NCBI GenBank assembly: GCA_031418595.1
Contig: JANOXU010000267.1
Coordinates: forward strand, 1,848 to 65,847
Source: Burkholderiales bacterium
Lineage (GTDB): Bacteria; Pseudomonadota; Gammaproteobacteria; Burkholderiales; Burkholderiaceae_C
Reading direction: 5' to 3'
DNA length: 64,000 bases
This document shows positions 19,724-57,270 of this stretch, one piece after another (position 1 is the first letter of the stretch; every line of letters begins with the position of its first letter). The translations under genes were made by a program, and so were the position numbers. Below the pieces are notes generated by a model, which saw only the letters and a list, made by a program, of their open reading frames with translations, had not been told where the DNA came from and did not search any database.

Positions 19724-20847
19724 CTGACGCAGCAGGTGGCCACATCCTCGTCGTTGACGACGTGGAAAAGAACGCCCGTCTGCTGGCCGATGTGCTCACT
19801 GCCAAAGGCTTTCGCACGCGCACCGCGCTGTCGGGCGAGGCTGCGCTGCAAGACGTGGCGGCGCACCCGCCCAGCCTGATCTTGCTCGACGTGATGATGC
19901 CGGGCATCAGCGGCTACGACGTCTGCCGCACGCTGCGCGCCGACCCGGCGCATGCCGTGTTGCCCATCGTGCTGGTCACGGCACTCGACCCGAGCACGGA
20001 GCGCGTGAAAGGCCTGGAGGCGGGTGCTGACGACTTCTTGAGCAAGCCGGTGAATCAAGCCGAACTGCTGGCGCGCGTGCGTTCGCTGTTGCGCATCAAG
20101 ACGCTGTATGACGAAGTGCAGCGCCAAAAGGCCGAGCTGCAGCAATGGAACCAGTCGCTCGAACAGCGTGTGGCCGATGGCGTGCGGCAACTCGAACAAG
20201 TGGGCCGCCTGAAGCGCTTTTTCTCACCGCAACTGGCCGACATGCTGGTGCAAGGCGGCGACGAACTGCTCAAGACGCACCGCCGCGAGATTTGCGTCGT
20301 GTTCATCGACTTGCGCGGCTTCACCACCTTCACCGAACGTGCTGAACCCGAAGAGGTGATGGAGTTGCTGCACAGCTACCACCAGGCCATGGGTCAGATC
20401 GTGGTGGCGCACAGCGGCACGCTGGAGCGTTTTGCCGGCGACTCGGTGATGGTGTTTTTCAACGACCCCGTGCCCATCGACAAGCCGGCCGAAGCCGCCG
20501 TGCGCATGGCCTTGCAAATGCAGCAGGCCTTCACGCCGTTGGCCCAGGCGTGGGCCAAGCGCGGCTTTGATTTGGCGCTGGGCTGCGGCATCGCCCAGGG
20601 CTACGCCACGCTGGGTGCGATTGGCTTCGAGGGCCGCTGGGACTATGCCGCCATCGGCAACGTCACCAACATGGCCGCGCGCTTGTGCGGCGAGGCCGGC
20701 GGCGGCCAGGTGCTGGTCGACCGCAAGGCCATGGCCCACATTGAAGACCTGGTGCATGCCGCGCCGGTGGGGCCGCTGGTGCTGAAGGGGTTGGCGCAAC
20801 CGGTGATGGCGTTTGCCGTGTCGGAACTGAAACCATCGAACTCATGA
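19720..20847 (+). CDS. Receiver domain fused to class III adenylate/guanylate cyclase
   Basis: Start MTDAAG at 19720; REC (LVVDD, LLDVMMP, FLSKP); cyclase VFIDLRGFT, RFAGD, IGNVTNMAARL. Confidence 0.92.
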   Translation: MTDAAGGHILVVDDVEKNARLLADVLTAKGFRTRTALSGEAALQDVAAHPPSLILLDVMMPGISGYDVCRTLRADPAHAVLPIVLVTALDPSTERVKGLEAGADDFLSKPVNQAELLARVRSLLRIKTLYDEVQRQKAELQQWNQSLEQRVADGVRQLEQVGRLKRFFSPQLADMLVQGGDELLKTHRREICVVFIDLRGFTTFTERAEPEEVMELLHSYHQAMGQIVVAHSGTLERFAGDSVMVFFNDPVPIDKPAEAAVRMALQMQQAFTPLAQAWAKRGFDLALGCGIAQGYATLGAIGFEGRWDYAAIGNVTNMAARLCGEAGGGQVLVDRKAMAHIEDLVHAAPVGPLVLKGLAQPVMAFAVSELKPSNS

Positions 20848-24457: not shown

Positions 24458-27262
24458 ATGACGGATTCAGCGCCGTCTGGGCGCACGGTCTTCCTCAGCT
24501 ACAACCGCGAAAACGCCACGGCGGCGACGCAACTGCGCGACTGGCTGCGTGATGAAGGCCTGGACGTGTTCATGGACAACGTCCACCTCATCGCCGGCGA
24601 GCCCTGGCTGCAGCGCCTGAAGCAAGAAGTGGCGCAGGCCCGTGCGGTGGTCGTTTTGATGCGCCACGAAGGCCCGCGCGGCTTTGTGCTCGACGAAGTG
24701 AGCTGGTTCCTTGAACGCCACGCGCAGGCGCTGGCCCTGAAGCTGCCCGCGCCGGGTTTGTTTCCGGTTTGTCTGGGCGAGGTACCCGAAGAGCAGGCGC
24801 TCGATGCGCGCGTGCACGCGCTGCTGAAGTTTCAGGTCACGCTTTGGCAACCCGGGCAAGCCATGCCCACCGCTTTGCTCGATGCCCTGCGCAAACTGCT
24901 GCCGTCGGAACACTTCGCGCCCCAGCATTGCCCGTTCCGTGGCCTGGCCACCTTTGAAGAGAGCGACGCCGCGTGGTTCTTCGGCCGCAAGCGCGAAACG
25001 CACGAGGTGACCGACGGCCTGGGCAGCGCGCCCGCAGCCGACGGCACATTCGACCGGCAAGCGCCGGGCCACCGCCGTTATGCGCTGATCAGCGGCGACA
25101 GCGGTTCGGGCAAGTCCTCGCTGCTGCGTGCCGGAGTGTTGCCGCTGCTGCGCGCAGGCGCCCTGTGGTCGCGCACCGGCCTGCGCCACTGGCGCGTCGT
25201 GGGCCCGCTGCGGCCCGGCGCCCGGCCGTTGGCCGAGCTGGAACGCGCACTCAGTGCGATGCTTGACGCGGCCCAGCCCGAGGCGCCGGCTGCGGCCCGG
25301 CTTGCGGCTTTGCGCGGCGATGCCGGCGCGCTGGTTGGCCTGCTCGCCAAGGTTCAGGTTGCGGACACCGGCGTGCTGCTGATCGTTGATCAGATGGAAG
25401 AGCTGCTGCAAACCAGTGTCGATGCGGGCGAGCGGCAGCAGTTTGGCGCGCTGCTGGCCATGGCCTTGCAAACCCCAAGCTGCCCGCTTTACCTGGTCGG
25501 CACCGTGCGGGCCGATGCCCTGGCCGAACTGGACACCTTGGAGCCCGAGTTGGTGCGCGCGCGCAACCGCTGCGGCCTGGTCTATACCTTGCCACGCATC
25601 ACCGAGTCGGGCCTGCGCCTGAGCATTGAAGAGCCGGCGCGCCGCGCGGGCGTCGACGTCAGCGAAGTGGCCGAACTGATTCTGGGCGAGGCGCACAACG
25701 AGCCCGGCGCCTTGGCCTTGGTGCAGCACGCGCTGTGGTCGTTGTGGCGCACGCAGCACCGGCGCGGGCCCGTCACCCGCTTGCTGCGCAGCGACCATGA
25801 AGCCGCCGGCGGCCTGGCCGGCATGCTCAGCCGCGATGCGGATGCCGCCCTGGAGCAGGTGAAGGCAGAGCTGGGCAGCGACGCCGGCGCGATGCAACTG
25901 TTGCGCCAAATGACCTGGGTGGGCGCCGAAGACCGGCTGTTCCGCCGCCGGTTGGGCCGCACCGAGGCCGAGTGGTGGGCCGGTGCGGGCGAGCGCGAAC
26001 GCGGCGCGCGGGTGATCGGCATGCTCTCAGGCCAAAGTGCAGCGACAGCAGATGCTGAACCCGGCATGGCCCCGGCAGCACATTTGCCGCTGTTAGTGAC
26101 CGGCAACGATGGCGGCGCCGAGCCCTACGTGGAGCTGGTGCACGAGATGCTGCTGCGCACGAGTGGGCGTTCCGGTGAGCCGGCGCGGCCGCATTGGCAG
26201 CGGCTGTATGAATTCATCCAGCGCCACTTGAACGAGCTCAAGCTCGAACAGCGCTTGCACGCCGACGTGCACACCTGGCGCCAGCTCAGCTTCTGGCAAC
26301 GCTGGCGCCGCCTGGCCAGCTTCAAAGAGCAGCGCCAATACGCACGCTTGCCGCGTTCAGCCGATGCCAACACGCGGCGCTATTTGGCGTTCAGCCGCAG
26401 CAAGTCGGGCGTGCTGGTGGCCGCTGTGGCGCTGCCCTTGGCTTACCTGGGCGTGGGCAGCTACTTTATTTTCCAGCAGGGCAATATTTTTCCCATCAAC
26501 TACGCCACGCGGCTGCCGCTGTGGGCACTGGGCATGGGCGCCGAACCTGAGTTCGCGCGCCTGCCCGGCGCCACCGCGACCTTTGACTTTGGTTGCGACC
26601 CGGCACGCGACACGGTGGACAGGCAGGCTTGCGGCGGCGGCTACTTGCCGCTGCAACGCGCTTTCAGCCAGCCCATTCGTTGCGACATGGGCCGCCACGA
26701 GGTCAGCTTCGAACAGTTCGATCGTTTCGTTTTCAGCCAGCGACGTGCCGGCGCCGCACAACACCCGTATCCCGCGCCGGGCGAGAAGGTTCGCGGCGAG
26801 CAGCCGGTGATGGAGGTTTCACGCGCCGATGCGCAGGCCTACGCGGCATGGCTAAGCGCGCGCAGCAACCCACCGCAGCGGTATCGGTTGCCGCTGGAAT
26901 GGGAATGGGAATACGCCGCCCGCGCCGGCTCCAGCGGGCCCTACCCGTGGGGCACCGAGTCGCCCGTGGGCCGCGCCAATTTCGACGACAACGGCCCGGC
27001 CACGCCCGCGGCGCGGCCGGTGCGCAGCGGCCAGCCCAATGCCTTCGGCCTGCACCATGTGGTGGGCAATGTGAGCGAATGGGTGGCCGACGATGCCAAC
27101 CCCTTCACGGCCTCGGCGCCGCAGCATGTTTCACGCGGCGGCTCTTTCGCTCAAGGCGCCTCGCGGGTACGGGTGGCGGCGCGCCAGTCCATGGAACCCG
27201 ATCAAGCGGGCGACACGAGCACGGCCACCAACATTGGCTTCAGGCTTTGTCGGGAAAGATGA
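24458..27262 (+). CDS. TIR - nSTAND1 NTPase - transmembrane helix - FGE-sulfatase (SUMF1-like) protein (start 24458; 24419 possible)
   Basis: TIR: VFLSYNRE...FMD...GEPW...FVLDEV. Linker CPFRGLATFEESDAAWFFGR. Walker A GDSGSGKSS; Walker B LIVDQMEE; ELVHEMLL..HWQRL. TM VLVAAVALPLAYLGVGSYFIF. FGE: RLPLEWEWEYAAR, PNAFGLHHVVGNVSEW, RGGSF, IGFRL. Confidence 0.88.
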   Translation: MTDSAPSGRTVFLSYNRENATAATQLRDWLRDEGLDVFMDNVHLIAGEPWLQRLKQEVAQARAVVVLMRHEGPRGFVLDEVSWFLERHAQALALKLPAPGLFPVCLGEVPEEQALDARVHALLKFQVTLWQPGQAMPTALLDALRKLLPSEHFAPQHCPFRGLATFEESDAAWFFGRKRETHEVTDGLGSAPAADGTFDRQAPGHRRYALISGDSGSGKSSLLRAGVLPLLRAGALWSRTGLRHWRVVGPLRPGARPLAELERALSAMLDAAQPEAPAAARLAALRGDAGALVGLLAKVQVADTGVLLIVDQMEELLQTSVDAGERQQFGALLAMALQTPSCPLYLVGTVRADALAELDTLEPELVRARNRCGLVYTLPRITESGLRLSIEEPARRAGVDVSEVAELILGEAHNEPGALALVQHALWSLWRTQHRRGPVTRLLRSDHEAAGGLAGMLSRDADAALEQVKAELGSDAGAMQLLRQMTWVGAEDRLFRRRLGRTEAEWWAGAGERERGARVIGMLSGQSAATADAEPGMAPAAHLPLLVTGNDGGAEPYVELVHEMLLRTSGRSGEPARPHWQRLYEFIQRHLNELKLEQRLHADVHTWRQLSFWQRWRRLASFKEQRQYARLPRSADANTRRYLAFSRSKSGVLVAAVALPLAYLGVGSYFIFQQGNIFPINYATRLPLWALGMGAEPEFARLPGATATFDFGCDPARDTVDRQACGGGYLPLQRAFSQPIRCDMGRHEVSFEQFDRFVFSQRRAGAAQHPYPAPGEKVRGEQPVMEVSRADAQAYAAWLSARSNPPQRYRLPLEWEWEYAARAGSSGPYPWGTESPVGRANFDDNGPATPAARPVRSGQPNAFGLHHVVGNVSEWVADDANPFTASAPQHVSRGGSFAQGASRVRVAARQSMEPDQAGDTSTATNIGFRLCRER

Positions 27263-28914
27263 ACATGCGGCTCAAAGCAATCATGCTGGCATTGGCCACC
27301 GCTGGCGTTTGCGGCGCTGCCTGGGCACAGACCAGCCCACCCGTGCCGGAGCCACCGGCCCAGTTGGTGCCCAGCACCAAGCCGGCGGCACCGCCGGTGG
27401 TCGAGGTGCGGCATTACCTGGTGCTGGGCGTGACGCTGCTCGACGCCGCCGTGGTGCGCGCCGCACTCACCGGGTTGATCGGCCCACGCACGGTGGAAGA
27501 ACTGCACCGCGCCGCGGGCCAGGTGCAGGCGCTGTACGCGCGTGCCGGTTATGGCGCGGTGGTGGTGTACCTGCCGCCGCAAGAAGTGTCGGGCGGCGTC
27601 ATCACCTTGCAGGTGATTGAAGGCCGCTTGTCAGCGGTGCGCGTGGAAGGCGCTGGCCCGGCCTTCGGCGAGGCCGGCATCCTGGCCAGCCTGCCGGCGC
27701 TGCAAGCTGGCCAGACACCGCGCCTGGACCGGGTTGACGCGCAGTTGCGCATGGCCAACGACAACCCGGCCAAACGCACCCGCCTGGTGCTGCTGCCTGG
27801 GCAGCAGCCCGAACAGACCGAGGCCGAGATCGCGGTGGCGCCGGCGCCACGCCGCCAGCTTGGGCTGGAGCTTGATGACAGCGGCACGCCGGCCACCGGG
27901 CGCGCGCACCTGGGCCTGACCTGGCGCGACGCCAATGCGAGCGGCCGCGACGATGTGCTCGAACTGCGCCTGCAAGTCGCGCCCGAACAGCCCAGGCAAT
28001 TCGCGGCGGCCGGCCTGAGCTACCGGCTGCCGCTGTACCGCGCGCGCACCATGCTCGACGCCTTTGCGCTGCTGTCAGACACGCGCAGCGCCAGCATTCC
28101 CACGGCGCTGGGCGAGCTGCGCTTCGCCGGGCGCGGCCATCTGCTGGGGCTGCGCGCGACGCACTACCTGCCGCGGCTGGCGGCGTTTGATGCGCGCCTG
28201 GCATTAGGGCTCGAATACCGCGACCAACGCAACCAATGCGCCATCGGCACCCTGCCTGGCGGGGCCTGCGGCAGCGCGGGCGGTGATTTGGCCATCTTGC
28301 CCTTGACCCTGGAATACAGCCTGGCTGGCGACGCGCTGACGCCGCTGGCCCTGAACCTGGCCTGGGTGCAGGGCCTGGCCGCGGGTGGCGGCCGCGCTGA
28401 CCGCGCCGCGTTCGACGCCGTGCGGCCCGGCGCGCGACCCACCTTCACCGCGCTGCGGGCCCAGTTGAGTGCGCAACAACGCCTGAGCGTCACCGGCTGG
28501 GCCGCCAGCGCGCGCCTGGCCGGGCAATGGGCGGCGCAGCCCTTGGTGCCGGCGATGCAGTTCGGTGCCGGTGGGCGCGCTTCAGTGCGGGGCTACGAGG
28601 AGCGCGAACTCGCGGCCGACCATGGCCTGGCGCTGTCGCTGGAGTTGTCCGCACCCGGTTGGCAGGGCCCGCCCTGGCCGGGCACCACCTTGCGCCCACT
28701 GTTGTTCGTTGACGCCGCCACGCTGCGCAACCGCGACGCCGCCCCTTGCAGCGGCCTGCAGATGCGGTGCGACCTGGCCAGTGCCGGCTTTGGCCTGCGG
28801 CTCGACGCACGCGCGCTCACAGTCAGCCTGGACATCGCCCACGCTCTGCGCAGCGCGGGCACCACCCAGCGCGGGCACACGCGCGGCCACGTCTGGCTGC
28901 GCCTGGTGTATTGA
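27259..28914 (+). CDS. TpsB (ShlB/FhaC/HecB) two-partner secretion outer-membrane transporter
   Basis: Start MNMRLK (ATGA overlap); signal peptide; POTRA (LYARAGYGAVVVYLPPQEV..GVITLQVIEGRL); DDSG; QFGAGGRASVRGY motif; beta-strand C-terminus WLRLVY. Confidence 0.92.
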   Translation: MNMRLKAIMLALATAGVCGAAWAQTSPPVPEPPAQLVPSTKPAAPPVVEVRHYLVLGVTLLDAAVVRAALTGLIGPRTVEELHRAAGQVQALYARAGYGAVVVYLPPQEVSGGVITLQVIEGRLSAVRVEGAGPAFGEAGILASLPALQAGQTPRLDRVDAQLRMANDNPAKRTRLVLLPGQQPEQTEAEIAVAPAPRRQLGLELDDSGTPATGRAHLGLTWRDANASGRDDVLELRLQVAPEQPRQFAAAGLSYRLPLYRARTMLDAFALLSDTRSASIPTALGELRFAGRGHLLGLRATHYLPRLAAFDARLALGLEYRDQRNQCAIGTLPGGACGSAGGDLAILPLTLEYSLAGDALTPLALNLAWVQGLAAGGGRADRAAFDAVRPGARPTFTALRAQLSAQQRLSVTGWAASARLAGQWAAQPLVPAMQFGAGGRASVRGYEERELAADHGLALSLELSAPGWQGPPWPGTTLRPLLFVDAATLRNRDAAPCSGLQMRCDLASAGFGLRLDARALTVSLDIAHALRSAGTTQRGHTRGHVWLRLVY

Positions 28915-42062: not shown

Positions 42063-43055
42063 ATGAAGAAGACCCACCTCGCTGGCGCCGCCGTGCTGCT
42101 CGTTCTGCTGCTGGCCGCCCCCCCGCTGCTGAAGAACTACGGCCTGTACCTGTTGAGCTACTGGCTGGTGTTCGTCATCGCCGTCATGGGCCTGAACCTG
42201 ACCATCGGCTATGCCGGGCAGAAGTCGCTCGGCCATGCCGCGTTCTTCGGCATCGGCGCGTACACCGTGGCCATCATGATAAAGGCCGGCATCAGCTTCT
42301 GGTTCGGCCTGCCGGTGGCCATGCTGGGTTGCTTCGTCATCGGCCTGGGGCTGGGCTTTCCGGCGCTGCGGGTGCAGACCATCTACCTGGCCTTTGCCAC
42401 GCTGGGCTTCAACACCGCGGTGTGGCTGGTGATGCGCAATGAAGAGTGGCTCACCGGTGGCACCTTCGGCATCAACAACATCCAGCGGCCCGGCCTGCTG
42501 GGGCTCGAATTGACCAGCAACCTGGCGTACTACTACTTCGTGCTCGGCGTGGCGCTGGTCATGGGCGCGGTGTTGTGGAAGCTGCTGCATTCGCCCTGGG
42601 GCAAGGCCTTCATGGCGCTGCGCGACAACCCGATCCGTGCTGAAAGCCTGGGCATCCATATCCAGGCCTACACGCTGCTGAGCTTTGCCATCGGCGCCGT
42701 GTATGCCGGCGTGGCCGGTGCGCTGTTTGCGCCGCTGGTTGAATTCATCGAGCCCGCGCCGTTCACCGTGGGCGCGTCGATCATGATGTATTTGATGGTC
42801 GTGGTGGGCGGCCCCGGCTACTTCTTCGGCCCGCTGCTGGGCAGCGCCGTGGGTGTGCTGCTGCCCGAATGGCTGCGCTTTGCTCAGGGCTGGTACTTGT
42901 TCGTCTTCGGCACCGCGGTGGTGTTGTTGATGTTATGGCTGCCTGATGGGCTGCTGAGCATTCCTGATCGGCTCAAGGCACGGCGCCAGGCCAGGCAAGC
43001 CAACGCGGCGCGCCAGGCGGCAGCGGCCGCATTGGGCAAGGGCGCCGCATCATGA
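42063..43055 (+). CDS. LivM-like ABC permease
   Basis: GLNLTIGYAGQKSLGHAAFFGIGAY; YLAFATLGF; WLPDGL. Confidence 0.92.
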   Translation: MKKTHLAGAAVLLVLLLAAPPLLKNYGLYLLSYWLVFVIAVMGLNLTIGYAGQKSLGHAAFFGIGAYTVAIMIKAGISFWFGLPVAMLGCFVIGLGLGFPALRVQTIYLAFATLGFNTAVWLVMRNEEWLTGGTFGINNIQRPGLLGLELTSNLAYYYFVLGVALVMGAVLWKLLHSPWGKAFMALRDNPIRAESLGIHIQAYTLLSFAIGAVYAGVAGALFAPLVEFIEPAPFTVGASIMMYLMVVVGGPGYFFGPLLGSAVGVLLPEWLRFAQGWYLFVFGTAVVLLMLWLPDGLLSIPDRLKARRQARQANAARQAAAAALGKGAAS

Positions 43056-43798
43056 CGCAGCCGGTGTTGAAGGTCACCGGCCTGAAGAAGGCCTATGGCG
43101 CGATCCAGGCCGTGGCCGGTGTGTCGTTCGAGGTCATGCCGGGTGAAATTTTCGGCGTCATCGGGCCTAACGGTTCAGGTAAGACGACCATGTTCAACAG
43201 CGTGCTCGGCCAGATCACGCCCGACGCCGGCAAGATCGAACTCAACGGCGAAGACATCACCCAGCTCAACCCGGTTCAGCTCCACCAGCGCGGCGTGGGC
43301 CGCACGTTTCAAACGCTGCAGGTCTTCGGCAAGATGAGCGTGCGCGACAACCTGCTGGTGGCCGCGCAAGAACACCAGGGCAGCATGTTCAGCCGCATGT
43401 TCGCGCCCAGCGATTCGGGCCTGGGTGCGCGCGCCGATGCGCTGATCGACCAGTTCCGCATCCGCCATGTGGCCGACAAAAAGGCCGGCGAGCTGAGCTA
43501 CGGCCAGCAAAAGCTGGTCGACATCGCCATGGCCTTCATGAGCGAGCCCAGCCTGGTGCTGCTCGACGAGCCCTGCGCCGGCGTCAACCCCAGCTTGGTG
43601 GGCGGCATCCGCACGCTGCTGAAGGAGTTGAACGGCACACGCAAGGGCAGCTTCATCGTCATCGAACACAACATGGATTTCGTGATGGGCCTGTGCCACC
43701 GCATCATGGTGATGGTGGAAGGGCAGGTCATGGCCATCGGCACGCCGGCCGAGATTCGCGGCAACCGGCAGGTGCTTGATGCCTACCTGGGGAATTGA
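43052..43798 (+). CDS. LivG-like ABC ATPase
   Basis: IGPNGSGKTT, LSYGQQK, LLDEP, IEHNM. Confidence 0.93.
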   Translation: MTQPVLKVTGLKKAYGAIQAVAGVSFEVMPGEIFGVIGPNGSGKTTMFNSVLGQITPDAGKIELNGEDITQLNPVQLHQRGVGRTFQTLQVFGKMSVRDNLLVAAQEHQGSMFSRMFAPSDSGLGARADALIDQFRIRHVADKKAGELSYGQQKLVDIAMAFMSEPSLVLLDEPCAGVNPSLVGGIRTLLKELNGTRKGSFIVIEHNMDFVMGLCHRIMVMVEGQVMAIGTPAEIRGNRQVLDAYLGN

Positions 43799-44147
43799 TG
43801 AAACACCCCCTACGCGCTTCGCGCGCCTTCCGGCAGGTAGGCTGGAAGGCCTTCGCAGGCGAGGGTCAGTCCGCAGGGACTGTTTCTCGTCCGGGCTCAG
43901 CCCCCTCATGGGGGCCGAGGCCCGCGGCTCCAAGCCGACCTGCGTCGGCTTGGACGGGCCGAGGAATGGCCGCGTCTCGCGGCCATGCGGCCTGCAAGGC
44001 ACGCCAGCGGCCCGGCAAAGCGCTTGCGCTTCAGCGAAGGCTAATATCGCGCCAGCGATGTGAGGCCGCAGCTAAAGCCGGTTCCGCGGCGTTCGCTTGG
44101 ATCGACCTGTTTCATACGACGCGAGTGCTGCTTCGTCGTCAATGAAA
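43798..44147. mobile_element. About 345-bp hairpin-rich element between livG and livF, flanked by ATGAAA direct repeats and carrying a 115-codon open frame (43798-44145)
   Basis: ATGAAA at 43798-43803 and 44142-44147. At least 8 stem-loops, e.g. TCCAAGCCGAC/GTCGGCTTGGA (43929-43954) and ATGGCCGCG/CGCGGCCAT (43966-43986). Confidence 0.65.
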
Positions 44148-44897
44148 GCTGACATGTCCGCCATCGCGATTGAGTTTGACGATGTGGTTGCCGGCTACGG
44201 CGACTTCATGATCCTGAATAACCTCAGCCTGAAGGCCAAGGCCGGCAAGATCACGCTGCTGCTTGGCCCCAACGGCGCGGGCAAGAGCACGGTGCTCAAG
44301 ACGCTGTTCGGCCTGCTCAAGGTGCGCCAGGGCCGCATCCGCCTGCATGGGCAAGACATCACCGGGGTGAGTTCGAGAGATTTGCTGGTCAAGCATGGCA
44401 TTGCCTTCGTGCCGCAGGGGCGCAACCTGTTCGGCCAGCTCAGCGTGTATGAAAACCTTGAACTCGGCGGCATCACCTTGGGCACCAAGCTCACGCGCGA
44501 ACGCATTCCTGAGGTGCTGACGCTGTTCCCCCGCGTGGCGCAGCGCCTGCACAGCGCGGCGTCGTCGCTGTCGGGCGGCGAGCAAAAGCAGTTGGAAGTG
44601 GGCCGCGCGTTGCTGCTGCGGCCCAAGGTGTTGTTGGTCGATGAACCCAGCATCGGCCTGAGCCCGCTGGTGGTGGCCGATGTCTTCAAGCTGCTGCGCA
44701 ACCTGGCCAGCCAGGGCACCACTGTTCTGATGGTCGAGCAAAACGTGAAGAGCGCGCTGAAGATGGCCGATGAAGCCATCGCGCTGGAGTCAGGCCAACT
44801 GGTGCTGCACAAGCCGGCCGATGAGTTGTTGAACGACCCCAACATCGAGCGCCTTTTCTTGGGCGGTGCACCTCCATCGGGCGAGGGGCTCACATGA
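44142..44897 (+). CDS. LivF-like ABC ATPase (start 44142 or 44154)
   Basis: LGPNGAGKST, FVPQGRNLF, LSGGEQKQL, LVDEPSIGLSP, VEQN. Confidence 0.93.
   Translation: MKADMSAIAIEFDDVVAGYGDFMILNNLSLKAKAGKITLLLGPNGAGKSTVLKTLFGLLKVRQGRIRLHGQDITGVSSRDLLVKHGIAFVPQGRNLFGQLSVYENLELGGITLGTKLTRERIPEVLTLFPRVAQRLHSAASSLSGGEQKQLEVGRALLLRPKVLLVDEPSIGLSPLVVADVFKLLRNLASQGTTVLMVEQNVKSALKMADEAIALESGQLVLHKPADELLNDPNIERLFLGGAPPSGEGLT

Positions 44898-55299: not shown

Positions 55300-57270
<1,971 letters not shown>

Follow-up and report, generated by a model that had tools for sequence, protein, structure and literature searches.

A Probable Mobile Hairpin Repeat Between livG-like and livF-like Genes of a Burkholderiales Bacterium

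Introduction

Interspersed hairpin repeats of bacterial genomes are usually taken as intergenic filler or as stabilisers of messenger RNA (mRNA). They include repetitive extragenic palindromic (REP) sequences and bacterial interspersed mosaic elements (BIMEs) of Escherichia coli, Pseudomonas and Stenotrophomonas, including the REPIN-RAYT system (RAYT, REP-associated tyrosine transposase). These are GC-rich imperfect palindromes present in tens of copies, extragenic and co-transcribed, which form mosaics of hairpin motifs and show lineage-specific expansions. Many are found within 15 nt of a stop codon, which some of them supply: 260 of 496 REPs of E. coli are situated within 15 nt of a stop, where they stall terminating ribosomes and lower translation (Liang et al., 2015, as summarised in PMC12306157), and the ends of GTAG-REPs frequently supply the stop codon itself (PMC3733652). 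Here we describe an insert at positions 43799-44149 of a 64,000-nt stretch of DNA from a Burkholderiales bacterium (GenBank assembly GCA_031418595.1, contig JANOXU010000267.1, positions 1,848 to 65,847, forward strand; the whole stretch is hereafter called the window). The insert separates a livG-like from a livF-like gene and is probably a copy of a non-autonomous, strand-specific mosaic hairpin repeat, here termed family A, which is REP/BIME-like with some traits of miniature inverted-repeat transposable elements (MITEs) and is spreading in several Burkholderiales lineages.

Family A likewise consists of short GC-rich imperfect palindromes, occurs in many copies, is extragenic and forms a mosaic of several hairpin motifs, which are the features that define REPs and BIMEs, and it shares their nearness to stop codons and their bursts by lineage. 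Its units are, however, strictly polar and always in gene orientation, whereas classical BIMEs alternate; a 42-nt block in them is invariant and non-palindromic, their head contains TGA/NTG, and their tail combines a Shine-Dalgarno (SD)-like motif with a TGA and a start context; and no RAYT gene is flanked by copies. A counterpart of the conserved GTAG or CGTC tag at the 5' foot of REP palindromes is doubtful: the tetranucleotide CTAC, which reads GTAG in the complementary strand, abuts the first stem, CGTC lies in the tail, and this position relative to the stems differs from the published REP layout (PMC3733652). The differences from REPs are thus the strict polarity, the long invariant non-palindromic block, the TGA-bracketed ends and the junction-rebuilding tail; the closeness of REPs to stop codons is already documented.

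Other described elements share part of these features. MITEs such as Correia/NEMIS of Neisseria and the enterobacterial repetitive intergenic consensus (ERIC) sequences are non-autonomous, 100-350 nt long, located and co-transcribed within operons, capable of forming long hairpins and equipped with expression signals for their neighbours. Family A, in contrast, lacks long terminal inverted repeats (8 nt only, the right one internal), is flanked by a repeat of TGA and not TA, has a fixed orientation, and brings a translational junction instead of a promoter or RNase III site. With insertion sequences (ISs) of the IS200/IS605 type (Y1/HUH) it has in common what appears to be a strand-specific insertion directly 3' of a short specific sequence, a similar short sequence at the 3' end of the element, subterminal hairpins and the dispensability of inverted repeats. 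It differs in that the genome of the window (the own genome) holds no small TnpA, that its left and right hairpins are dissimilar and that non-TGA stops are used in other genera. Finally, the palindromic elements of Rickettsia are also hairpin repeats that stay open in frame and can be translated without harm, but those lie within protein-coding genes and become part of the protein, whereas family A lies between genes and its frame is not conserved.

The Insert at the livG-like/livF-like Junction

The livG-like gene (43052-43798, forward strand, as are all features of this locus) encodes an ABC-transporter ATPase of the HAAT family and is closed by the TGA at 43796-43798; its orthologues in two genomes of the same genus, G010 and G012, share the ...DAYLGN* ending. 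The livF-like ATPase gene follows at 44154-44897, and genes for LivH/LivM-like permeases are found upstream of the livG-like gene. Both flanking proteins are LivG/LivF-type HAAT ATPases, but score below the equivalog cut-offs of NCBIfam and are therefore regarded as paralogues.

In G010 and G012 (82-83% identity) the livG/livF junction has no insert. The empty junction reads ...GGGGAAC-TGA-C-GTG-ATC... in G012 and ...GGAAAT-TGA-TGCC-ATG-GCC... in G010, and the insert is a gain relative to these same-genus orthologues. The direct repeat that flanks it is TGA (43796-43798 and 44150-44152), the right copy being followed by C and the livF-like start as at the empty G012 site. Excision of 43799-44152 produces GGGGAATTGACATGTCC, with TGA-C-ATG and hence the same TGA-C-start geometry as in G012. 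The ancestral junction was TGA-C-ATG-like, not TGATG-AAA.

A first-pass annotation, made from the letters of the window alone, had described the overlap of the livG stop with an ATG (43798-43800, as TGATG), which opens a frame of 115 codons without a stop (43798-44145) ending in ATGA at 44142-44145; the coordinates of the open reading frames (ORFs) confirm this description. The reconstruction of the event proposed there, namely a duplication of ATGAAA at both ends and a deletion of 344 bp recreating a livG-TGATG-livF junction, has to be replaced. The head ATGAAAC and the tail ATGRAAAC are conserved parts of the family and no target duplication; the flanking repeat is TGA and the relevant deletion is 43799-44152. 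The start of the livF-like gene, placed by that annotation in the ATGA at 44142, is most likely the ATG at 44154 rather than the in-frame ATG at 44142, because this position agrees with the other copies (...ACTGAC-ATG) and with the orthologues. The 115-codon frame then closes at TGA 44143-44145, 8 nt before the ATG at 44154.

The insert is strongly structured. Its minimum free energy (MFE; 352 nt) is -196 kcal/mol, compared with -160 +/- 5.7 kcal/mol in dinucleotide shuffles (z -6.3; 0 of 100 shuffles as good), and the MFE fold has at least eight terminal hairpins. This fold and a stem search recover the at least eight stem-loops of the first-pass annotation, together with the three stems that it had named: a perfect 11-bp stem (43929-43939/43944-43954), a perfect 9-bp stem (43966-43974/43978-43986) and a 10-bp stem with 90% pairing (43825-43834/43841-43850).

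Alignment to the basic unit of the family, which spans 139 nt when counted from the NTG of the head up to the downstream ATG, resolves the window copy into this unit and nested hairpin blocks of 75, 84 and 57 nt. The head (43798-43827) consists of ATGAAACA and, after it, the invariant block CACCCCCTACGCGCTTCGCGCGCC. Other copies have A, G or T as the N of its NTG, and the TG is part of the element-terminal TGAAAC. The first nested block (75 nt, 43825-43899) holds two hairpins including that at 43825-43850, and the module of its second hairpin recurs in the unrelated family B described below. It is followed by the C5-loop-G5 hairpin of the basic unit (GCCCCCTCATGGGGGC, 43900-43915) and by the second nested block (84 nt, 43916-43999) with three hairpins, among them those with the 11-bp (43929-43954) and 9-bp (43966-43986) stems. 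The long bulged hairpin of the basic unit (44000-44100, arms 44000-44016 and 44074-44100) carries the third nested block (57 nt, 44017-44073) in its loop. At 44108-44115 lies TGTTTCAT, the inverted complement of the head ATGAAACA, which is conserved in other copies; the resulting 8-nt inverted repeat is internal to the 3' end. The tail (44116-44149) is composed of the hairpin ACGACG...CGTCGT (44116-44139) and CAATGAAAGC, a homologue of the tail GGCGCCATGGAAAAC of the family. GAA has replaced the GGA of the SD-like motif in the window copy (ATGAAAGC in place of ATGGAAAAC), and this degraded motif is therefore weak. No promoter was predicted within the insert, and the only terminator-like match, a weak one, falls within a longer stem, as would fit read-through transcription; the element would thus be co-transcribed with its operon.

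A Family of Polar, Mosaic Repeats

Comparison of the 341 inner bases with the own genome produced 93 BLAST pieces at about 50 loci, many of them at contig ends; the assemblies are fragmented and all copy numbers given here are lower bounds. The first-pass annotation had suggested a BLASTn search for further copies and a look for the empty site in relatives. The search uncovered a family whose copies overwhelmingly lie directly past stop codons, and the empty site was found at livG/livF in G010 and G012. Together with the presence/absence polymorphism between the own genome and its closest relative, G069, the roughly 40 copies and the empty orthologous sites support the reading as a non-autonomous, REP/MITE-like, multi-copy element and a recent insertion.

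Common to the copies are the invariant head ATGAAACA-CCCCCTACGCGCTTCGCGCGCC, the C5-loop-G5 hairpin and the long bulged hairpin ending in ...GCGTTCGCTTGG. Most copies add a more variable tail, ...CTGTTTCAT-GCGTCGCGG-GTGGCGGCTGGCGCCA-TGGAAAAC-TGA-C-ATG. There is hardly any variation in the first 42 nt of 75 distinct copies, which is partly imposed by the search pattern. In the same 75 copies the outer stem of the long hairpin varies freely yet stays paired, with double changes in 9 of 25 base pairs; one pair is A-U in 44 copies, G-C in 28 and C-G in 1, another G-C in 34, C-G in 17, A-U in 17 and U-A in 2. This maintenance of pairing argues that the long hairpin is under selection, either as RNA or as single-stranded DNA.

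The nested blocks of the window copy recur in other combinations elsewhere, and sites shared by the own genome (G000) and G069 differ in module content; at the C7 and C56 sites one of the two genomes has the basic unit and the other a long version. The blocks are therefore gained and lost in place, as in BIME-type mosaics, and family A grows in situ by nested insertion of further hairpin modules. At the livG/livF site itself, G069 (L185:467-563 = L063) carries a 96-nt version made up of a 30-nt head, TTCATTCGCTTGG... and the tail, in which the head ATG is in frame with livF; both a real internal deletion and an assembly collapse are possible for this version.

The exact head 24-mer was found at more than 116 loci in named genomes, which belong to Aquabacterium, Roseateles/Pelomonas, Rhizobacter, Rubrivivax, Mitsuaria, Methylibium, Piscinibacter, Caldimonas and others, and also to the Alcaligenaceae genera Pigmentiphaga and Achromobacter. 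In a survey of the window's family with one genome per genus (151 genomes), a 22-mer was present in 14 of the 151 representatives, and the reversed-pattern control gave 0. Positive genomes hold 60, 35 (the own genome), 18, 14 and then 1-4 copies, and the same-genus genome G001 holds 0. Such patchy counts across genera represent the bursty pattern of mobile DNA. Within the searchable library the element sequences and peptides had no published match, general searches giving only REP and coupling literature, and Rfam contained no relevant family at E <= 1 for the insert.

An IS4/IS5-like IS encoding a DDE transposase (end CATAAGCGCTAACGTAAG...) is inserted twice right at C5-loop-G5 hairpins, on two contigs of the own genome outside the window (C73 ~1290-1330 and C158 ~19790-19830). 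One host is a family-A copy and the other a family-B-type cluster, and the IS looks as if it targets these hairpins; IS1397 is known to target REPs. The head-only copy on C73 had been considered as a trace of an autonomous parent, which was rejected as the unrelated DDE IS had landed in its C5/G5 hairpin.

Insertion and Placement Directly Past Stop Codons

Insertion was followed at further sites by joining the 150-nt flanks of 18 other copies into one query and by mapping the G069 copies back onto the own genome. With G069 and other genomes this gave 12 further filled/empty pairs. At L177/C233 the empty GGTAC[TGA]CATGGTC corresponds to GGTAC[TGA]AATGAAAC...GGAGAAC[TGA]CATGGTC; at L172/C107, CCGC[TGA]CATG corresponds to CCGC[TGA]ATTGAACC...GGAAAAT[TGA]CATG; and at C114, CGC[TGA]ACGCGG... 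corresponds to CGC[TGA]AATGAAAC...AAAAACTGACC[TGA]AACG.... The same pattern of TGA on both sides is seen at C236 and C66; at C66 a GTGA overlap is remade as ATGA through the last base of the element. Most pairs retain the native stop codon; at C140, C33, C7 and C44 the upstream protein has altered last codons, and its gene is closed by the element's own TGA (at C44, by a TAG in the element hairpin). Insertion occurs directly after (Y)TGA in a fixed orientation, and a 3-bp duplication and a duplication-free insertion are not separable from these data. In the own genome TAG is found next to 0 of ~35 copies, with ~5 expected. Integration would take place at a TGA, usually the stop itself or the TGA of an NTGA overlap, which is then duplicated or regenerated.

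More than 130 copies, with their gene context taken from a crude ORF caller based on the GC content at third codon positions (GC3), are in gene orientation and 0-10 nt past the upstream stop. Within the own genome a same-strand long ORF of high GC3 ends at -7 to +4 of the head in most assessable copies, with the stop being a TGA at -4 (TGAA/ATG), -3, -2 (TGATG, the case of the window copy) or +1 (A[TGA]AAC), and none of the assessable copies has an opposite-strand gene end at its head. In the other genomes (~50), a same-strand ORF ends 4-14 nt before CACCCCC in 78 of 94 copies, and a TGA is likewise seen at this place in most of the other 16. Distances between the core and the next start vary widely (median 33 nt, 10-90% range 4-64), and about 30% of the copies in other genomes precede a convergent gene. 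A distribution so one-sided exceeds what selection alone would give, and placement is therefore largely mechanistic. The proposal that the element targets stop/start overlaps is supported in part: gene ends, gene orientation and many tight junctions speak for it.

The own genome holds two Y1_Tnp genes (PF01797, RAYT-like), on C91 and C16; a smaller cognate Y1 TnpA was not found among its genes. The C91-type protein (L144, C91:30550-31434) has 295 aa and combines Y1_Tnp with a C-terminal helix-turn-helix domain. Full-length orthologues occur in 19 of the 151 genus representatives, in 9 of 14 with the element and 10 of 137 without it (Fisher p = 1.5e-6, confounded by phylogeny), and the 60-copy genome G132 has no C91-type gene. 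The co-occurrence is only a lead, both traits probably being clade-limited. The precise placement past any stop codon makes the insertion mechanism worth finding.

The Tail as a Portable Junction and a Second Junction Repeat

The tail is far more variable among copies than head and core. The conserved parts are a short hairpin, an unpaired GGA(A/G)AA located 7-8 nt upstream of the start, and a TGA that one base separates from an ATG or GTG. In the own genome it is present in ~26 of 32 copies with a co-directional downstream gene and in 0 of 5 with a convergent one (Fisher p = 0.001, manual count); in other genomes 14 of 85 copies have it, and practically all of these precede a co-directional gene. 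Two explanations offer themselves: integration of full elements is restricted to stop/start junctions, or the tail persists only where use is made of it. The motif never occurs without the core in the own genome and is also absent from the empty sites, so that it comes in as part of the element; an origin from an older, separate repeat or from a native leader had been considered and was rejected on the same grounds. Under both explanations the tail behaves as a portable translational junction. The full form would survive between packed cistrons because the tail supplies a hairpin, the unpaired SD-like GGARAA, a TGA and a start one base later, whereupon the native spacer may often be lost.

Tracing a nested module that also sits inside NTGAGCCCGCCCGGCCGCCCGAAGGGCGAATACCGCAGTGCGCAGCACGAAGG-N7-8-NTGA led to a second repeat, family B, which is unrelated to family A. 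Its unit of 59-62 nt reads NTGAGCCCGCCCGGCC...AGTGCGCAGCACGAAGG-N7-8-NTGA, and the own genome has at least 51 simple units besides tandem arrays and expanded versions; one unit lies at a junction in the window itself (55737-55802, ATGA + 58 nt + ATGA). The head N is A in 43, G in 6, T in 2 and C in 0 units, the tail N is A in 29, G in 17, T in 5 and C in 0, and C before TGA is consequently found at neither end (0 of 102). In 49 of 51 units the tail NTG is followed by an A, in 36 of 51 it is the start of a long ORF, and a strong SD precedes the regenerated start by 7-8 nt.

Both families are bracketed by TGA, begin with an orphaned start codon and end with an SD and a regenerated start codon. 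Two unrelated families with such ends in one genome are the best argument that the termini are adaptations to operon junctions. It is possible, though less likely than not, that families A and B form a converged class of mobile elements specialised for translationally coupled stop/start junctions, whose survival would depend on restoring the junction that they interrupt. The strongest form of this idea would have them chosen or placed by a process that senses gene ends, since all three stop codons are used in background proportions. Family A lies almost only in one orientation, directly past stops, and its form carrying a ribosome-binding site is found only where a cistron follows. If the ends are adaptive for the element, selfish DNA could colonise overlapping gene junctions, which are the most constrained non-coding sites of a compact genome, without polar damage and would constitute a natural portable intercistronic junction; many small ORFs and N-terminal extensions that are spuriously annotated in GC-rich Burkholderiales would also find their explanation.

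Observations That Weigh Against a Simple Mobile Repeat

Several findings fit poorly with the view of the insert as a TGA-directed, REP/BIME-like mobile repeat whose open frame is incidental. At right junctions the native spacer or even the first codons are often missing (C123, C266, L174), and simple cut-and-paste insertion is therefore not the whole story. The adjacent stops in other genera are TGA in 59, TAG in 12 and TAA in 7 cases, indistinguishable from the 74/15/11% of genomic usage (p = 0.84; background taken from the window's own genome only), so that a TGA-specific target does not explain the pattern; left stops of TAG or TAA in these genera come without a repeat at the right end. Neither of the two PF01797 genes is flanked by or near copies, and no RAYT gene lies beside any copy; a mobiliser, for which the first-pass annotation had suggested looking among RAYT/TnpA(Y1) genes, was not found. 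Terminal inverted repeats beyond 8 nt were not found, nor an autonomous parent or parent IS; the sole inverted repeat is ATGAAACA/TGTTTCAT, whose right arm is situated, in full copies, 35 nt inward of the 3' end. Lastly, C is almost absent as the base before the head TG, and the four commonest nested modules (75, 84, 81 and 57 nt) are all multiples of three, both of which hint at selection on translation.

Alternative Explanations

The last two hints belong to an explanation in which the 115-codon frame is a relay: ribosomes terminating on livG reinitiate at the overlapping ATG, cross the hairpins and stop at or next to the livF start, so that coupling is kept and the element persists. The first-pass annotation had favoured this role; the evidence leaves it unlikely. 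It was examined in 38 full copies from the own genome, G069 and other genomes, 30 of which have ATG, GTG or TTG at the head. In most copies the head resembles a coupled junction (TGAnATG, TGATG or ATGA), the base before the head TG is A, G or T, and the three blocks of the window copy share the multiple-of-three length of the commonest modules. Fifteen of the 30 frames terminate precisely at the tail TGA that precedes the start by one base, 3 of 30 end at an ATGA overlap, 6 of 30 run in frame into the next gene and 6 of 30 stop earlier, four of the latter no more than 20 nt from the start, including the window copy at -11. Altogether, 28 of 30 stay free of stops until at most 20 nt before the downstream start or past it, 18 of them ending exactly at TGAnATG or ATGA; coupling would moreover matter more in the window copy with its degraded SD-like motif.

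These endings are, however, largely automatic, because at ...TGA-C-ATG-A... a frame hits the TGA, hits the ATGA or is in frame: two of the three frames end at the start by construction, the third fuses, and the test of the tail can hardly fail. Distinct head-to-tail length variants are distributed 7:6:7 over the three frame classes. The frame is therefore not conserved, and the excess of the first class reflects the abundance of the 139-nt unit. The second frame is as open as the first, and stops are not significantly depleted on the plus strand (distinct stop contexts 29 on plus and 39 on minus). The GC content at the three codon positions of the 115-codon frame is 0.69/0.70/0.62, against 0.63/0.39/0.88 in livG, and has no coding signature. 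In dinucleotide shuffles the given frame is open in 11% of cases (P = 0.11) and any frame in 33% (P = 0.33); openness is thus expected from composition, and the open frame of the window copy is unremarkable. A head start codon arises whenever the base is not C, given that NTG is a variable base before the element's terminal TGAAAC. Among the rarer modules the multiple-of-three bias is missing (13 of 27). Most copies in other genera lack the ATG or the tail and have no ATG-to-TGA frame at all, and the convergent gene behind about 30% of the copies in other genomes likewise speaks against a relay. The tail leaves the SD-like GGARAA and the start codon unpaired, and independent initiation therefore explains downstream expression without a relay. 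On the reading as a mobile hairpin repeat, the ATG-initiated open frame would be a by-product, with NTG arising from the base before TGAAAC and GC-rich hairpins rarely holding stops; it may be translated by reinitiating ribosomes, but would not be maintained for translation.

It is rather improbable that the insert is a host-selected, cis-acting RNA of the REP type, in which a structure no more than 15 nt from the stop stalls ribosomes or blocks 3' exonucleases and thereby tunes upstream output or segment stability. The structure does start 0-10 nt past the stop in ~85-90% of copies, its stem is kept by compensatory changes, a 42-nt block is invariant, and precedents exist in the stop-proximal, ribosome-stalling REPs of E. 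coli (260 of 496, as summarised in PMC12306157) and in the GTAG-REPs whose termini often supply a stop (PMC3733652). Presence and absence nevertheless vary between close relatives, module content differs at the same site, and the genes served are unrelated, being here two ATPase subunits that need equal dosage. Covariation would be equally expected if a transposase recognised the hairpin in single-stranded DNA, and there is the lack of an Rfam match already mentioned.

An integron-cassette-like site, with ATGAAAC ... GTTTCAT as the R''/R' core sites of an attC-like structure between cassettes, is very improbable: the AAC and GTT triplets are rightly placed and an imperfect palindrome of ~110 nt sits just past a stop codon and before the next ORF, but only these triplets agree with the attC consensus RYYYAAC/GTTRRRY, no L''/L' pairing exists beyond 8 nt, and the copies are dispersed over dozens of contigs, where they lie in ABC and housekeeping operons that keep their gene order in relatives; no search for intI was made.

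A genuine gene for a 115-aa small protein between livG and livF, for which the ATG start, the open frame and the tight junctions on both sides could be quoted, has next to no credibility, as the protein-coding reading is ruled out by the absence of both an NCBIfam match and a GC3 signature, the same DNA stands in all three frames relative to its neighbours, stems and not codons are conserved, and the G010 and G012 operons lack it, which excludes the conserved real protein of all orthologous operons that the first-pass annotation had named as a refuting case.

Further Sites in the Window and in ABC-Transporter Operons

A second site of the window has its counterpart in G069. After a large TIR/STAND-type gene, positions 27260-27265 form an empty site, TGA followed by A-C-ATG. 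In G069 (L174:485-900) a family-A copy of ~400 nt with duplicated modules lies directly after the TGA of the TIR/STAND-type gene, and its tail joins the next gene at an internal ATG, at the cost of seven native codons.

Copies also occupy other operons related to that of the window. A paralogous livG/livF junction (L006/L025, own genome C66:3928-4503) holds a 297-nt copy, the orthologous junction in G069 being an empty GTGA overlap, and a liv-like operon on C198:11025-14245 has a copy at each of three successive junctions. Family A seems to be hosted often by operons of ABC transporters.

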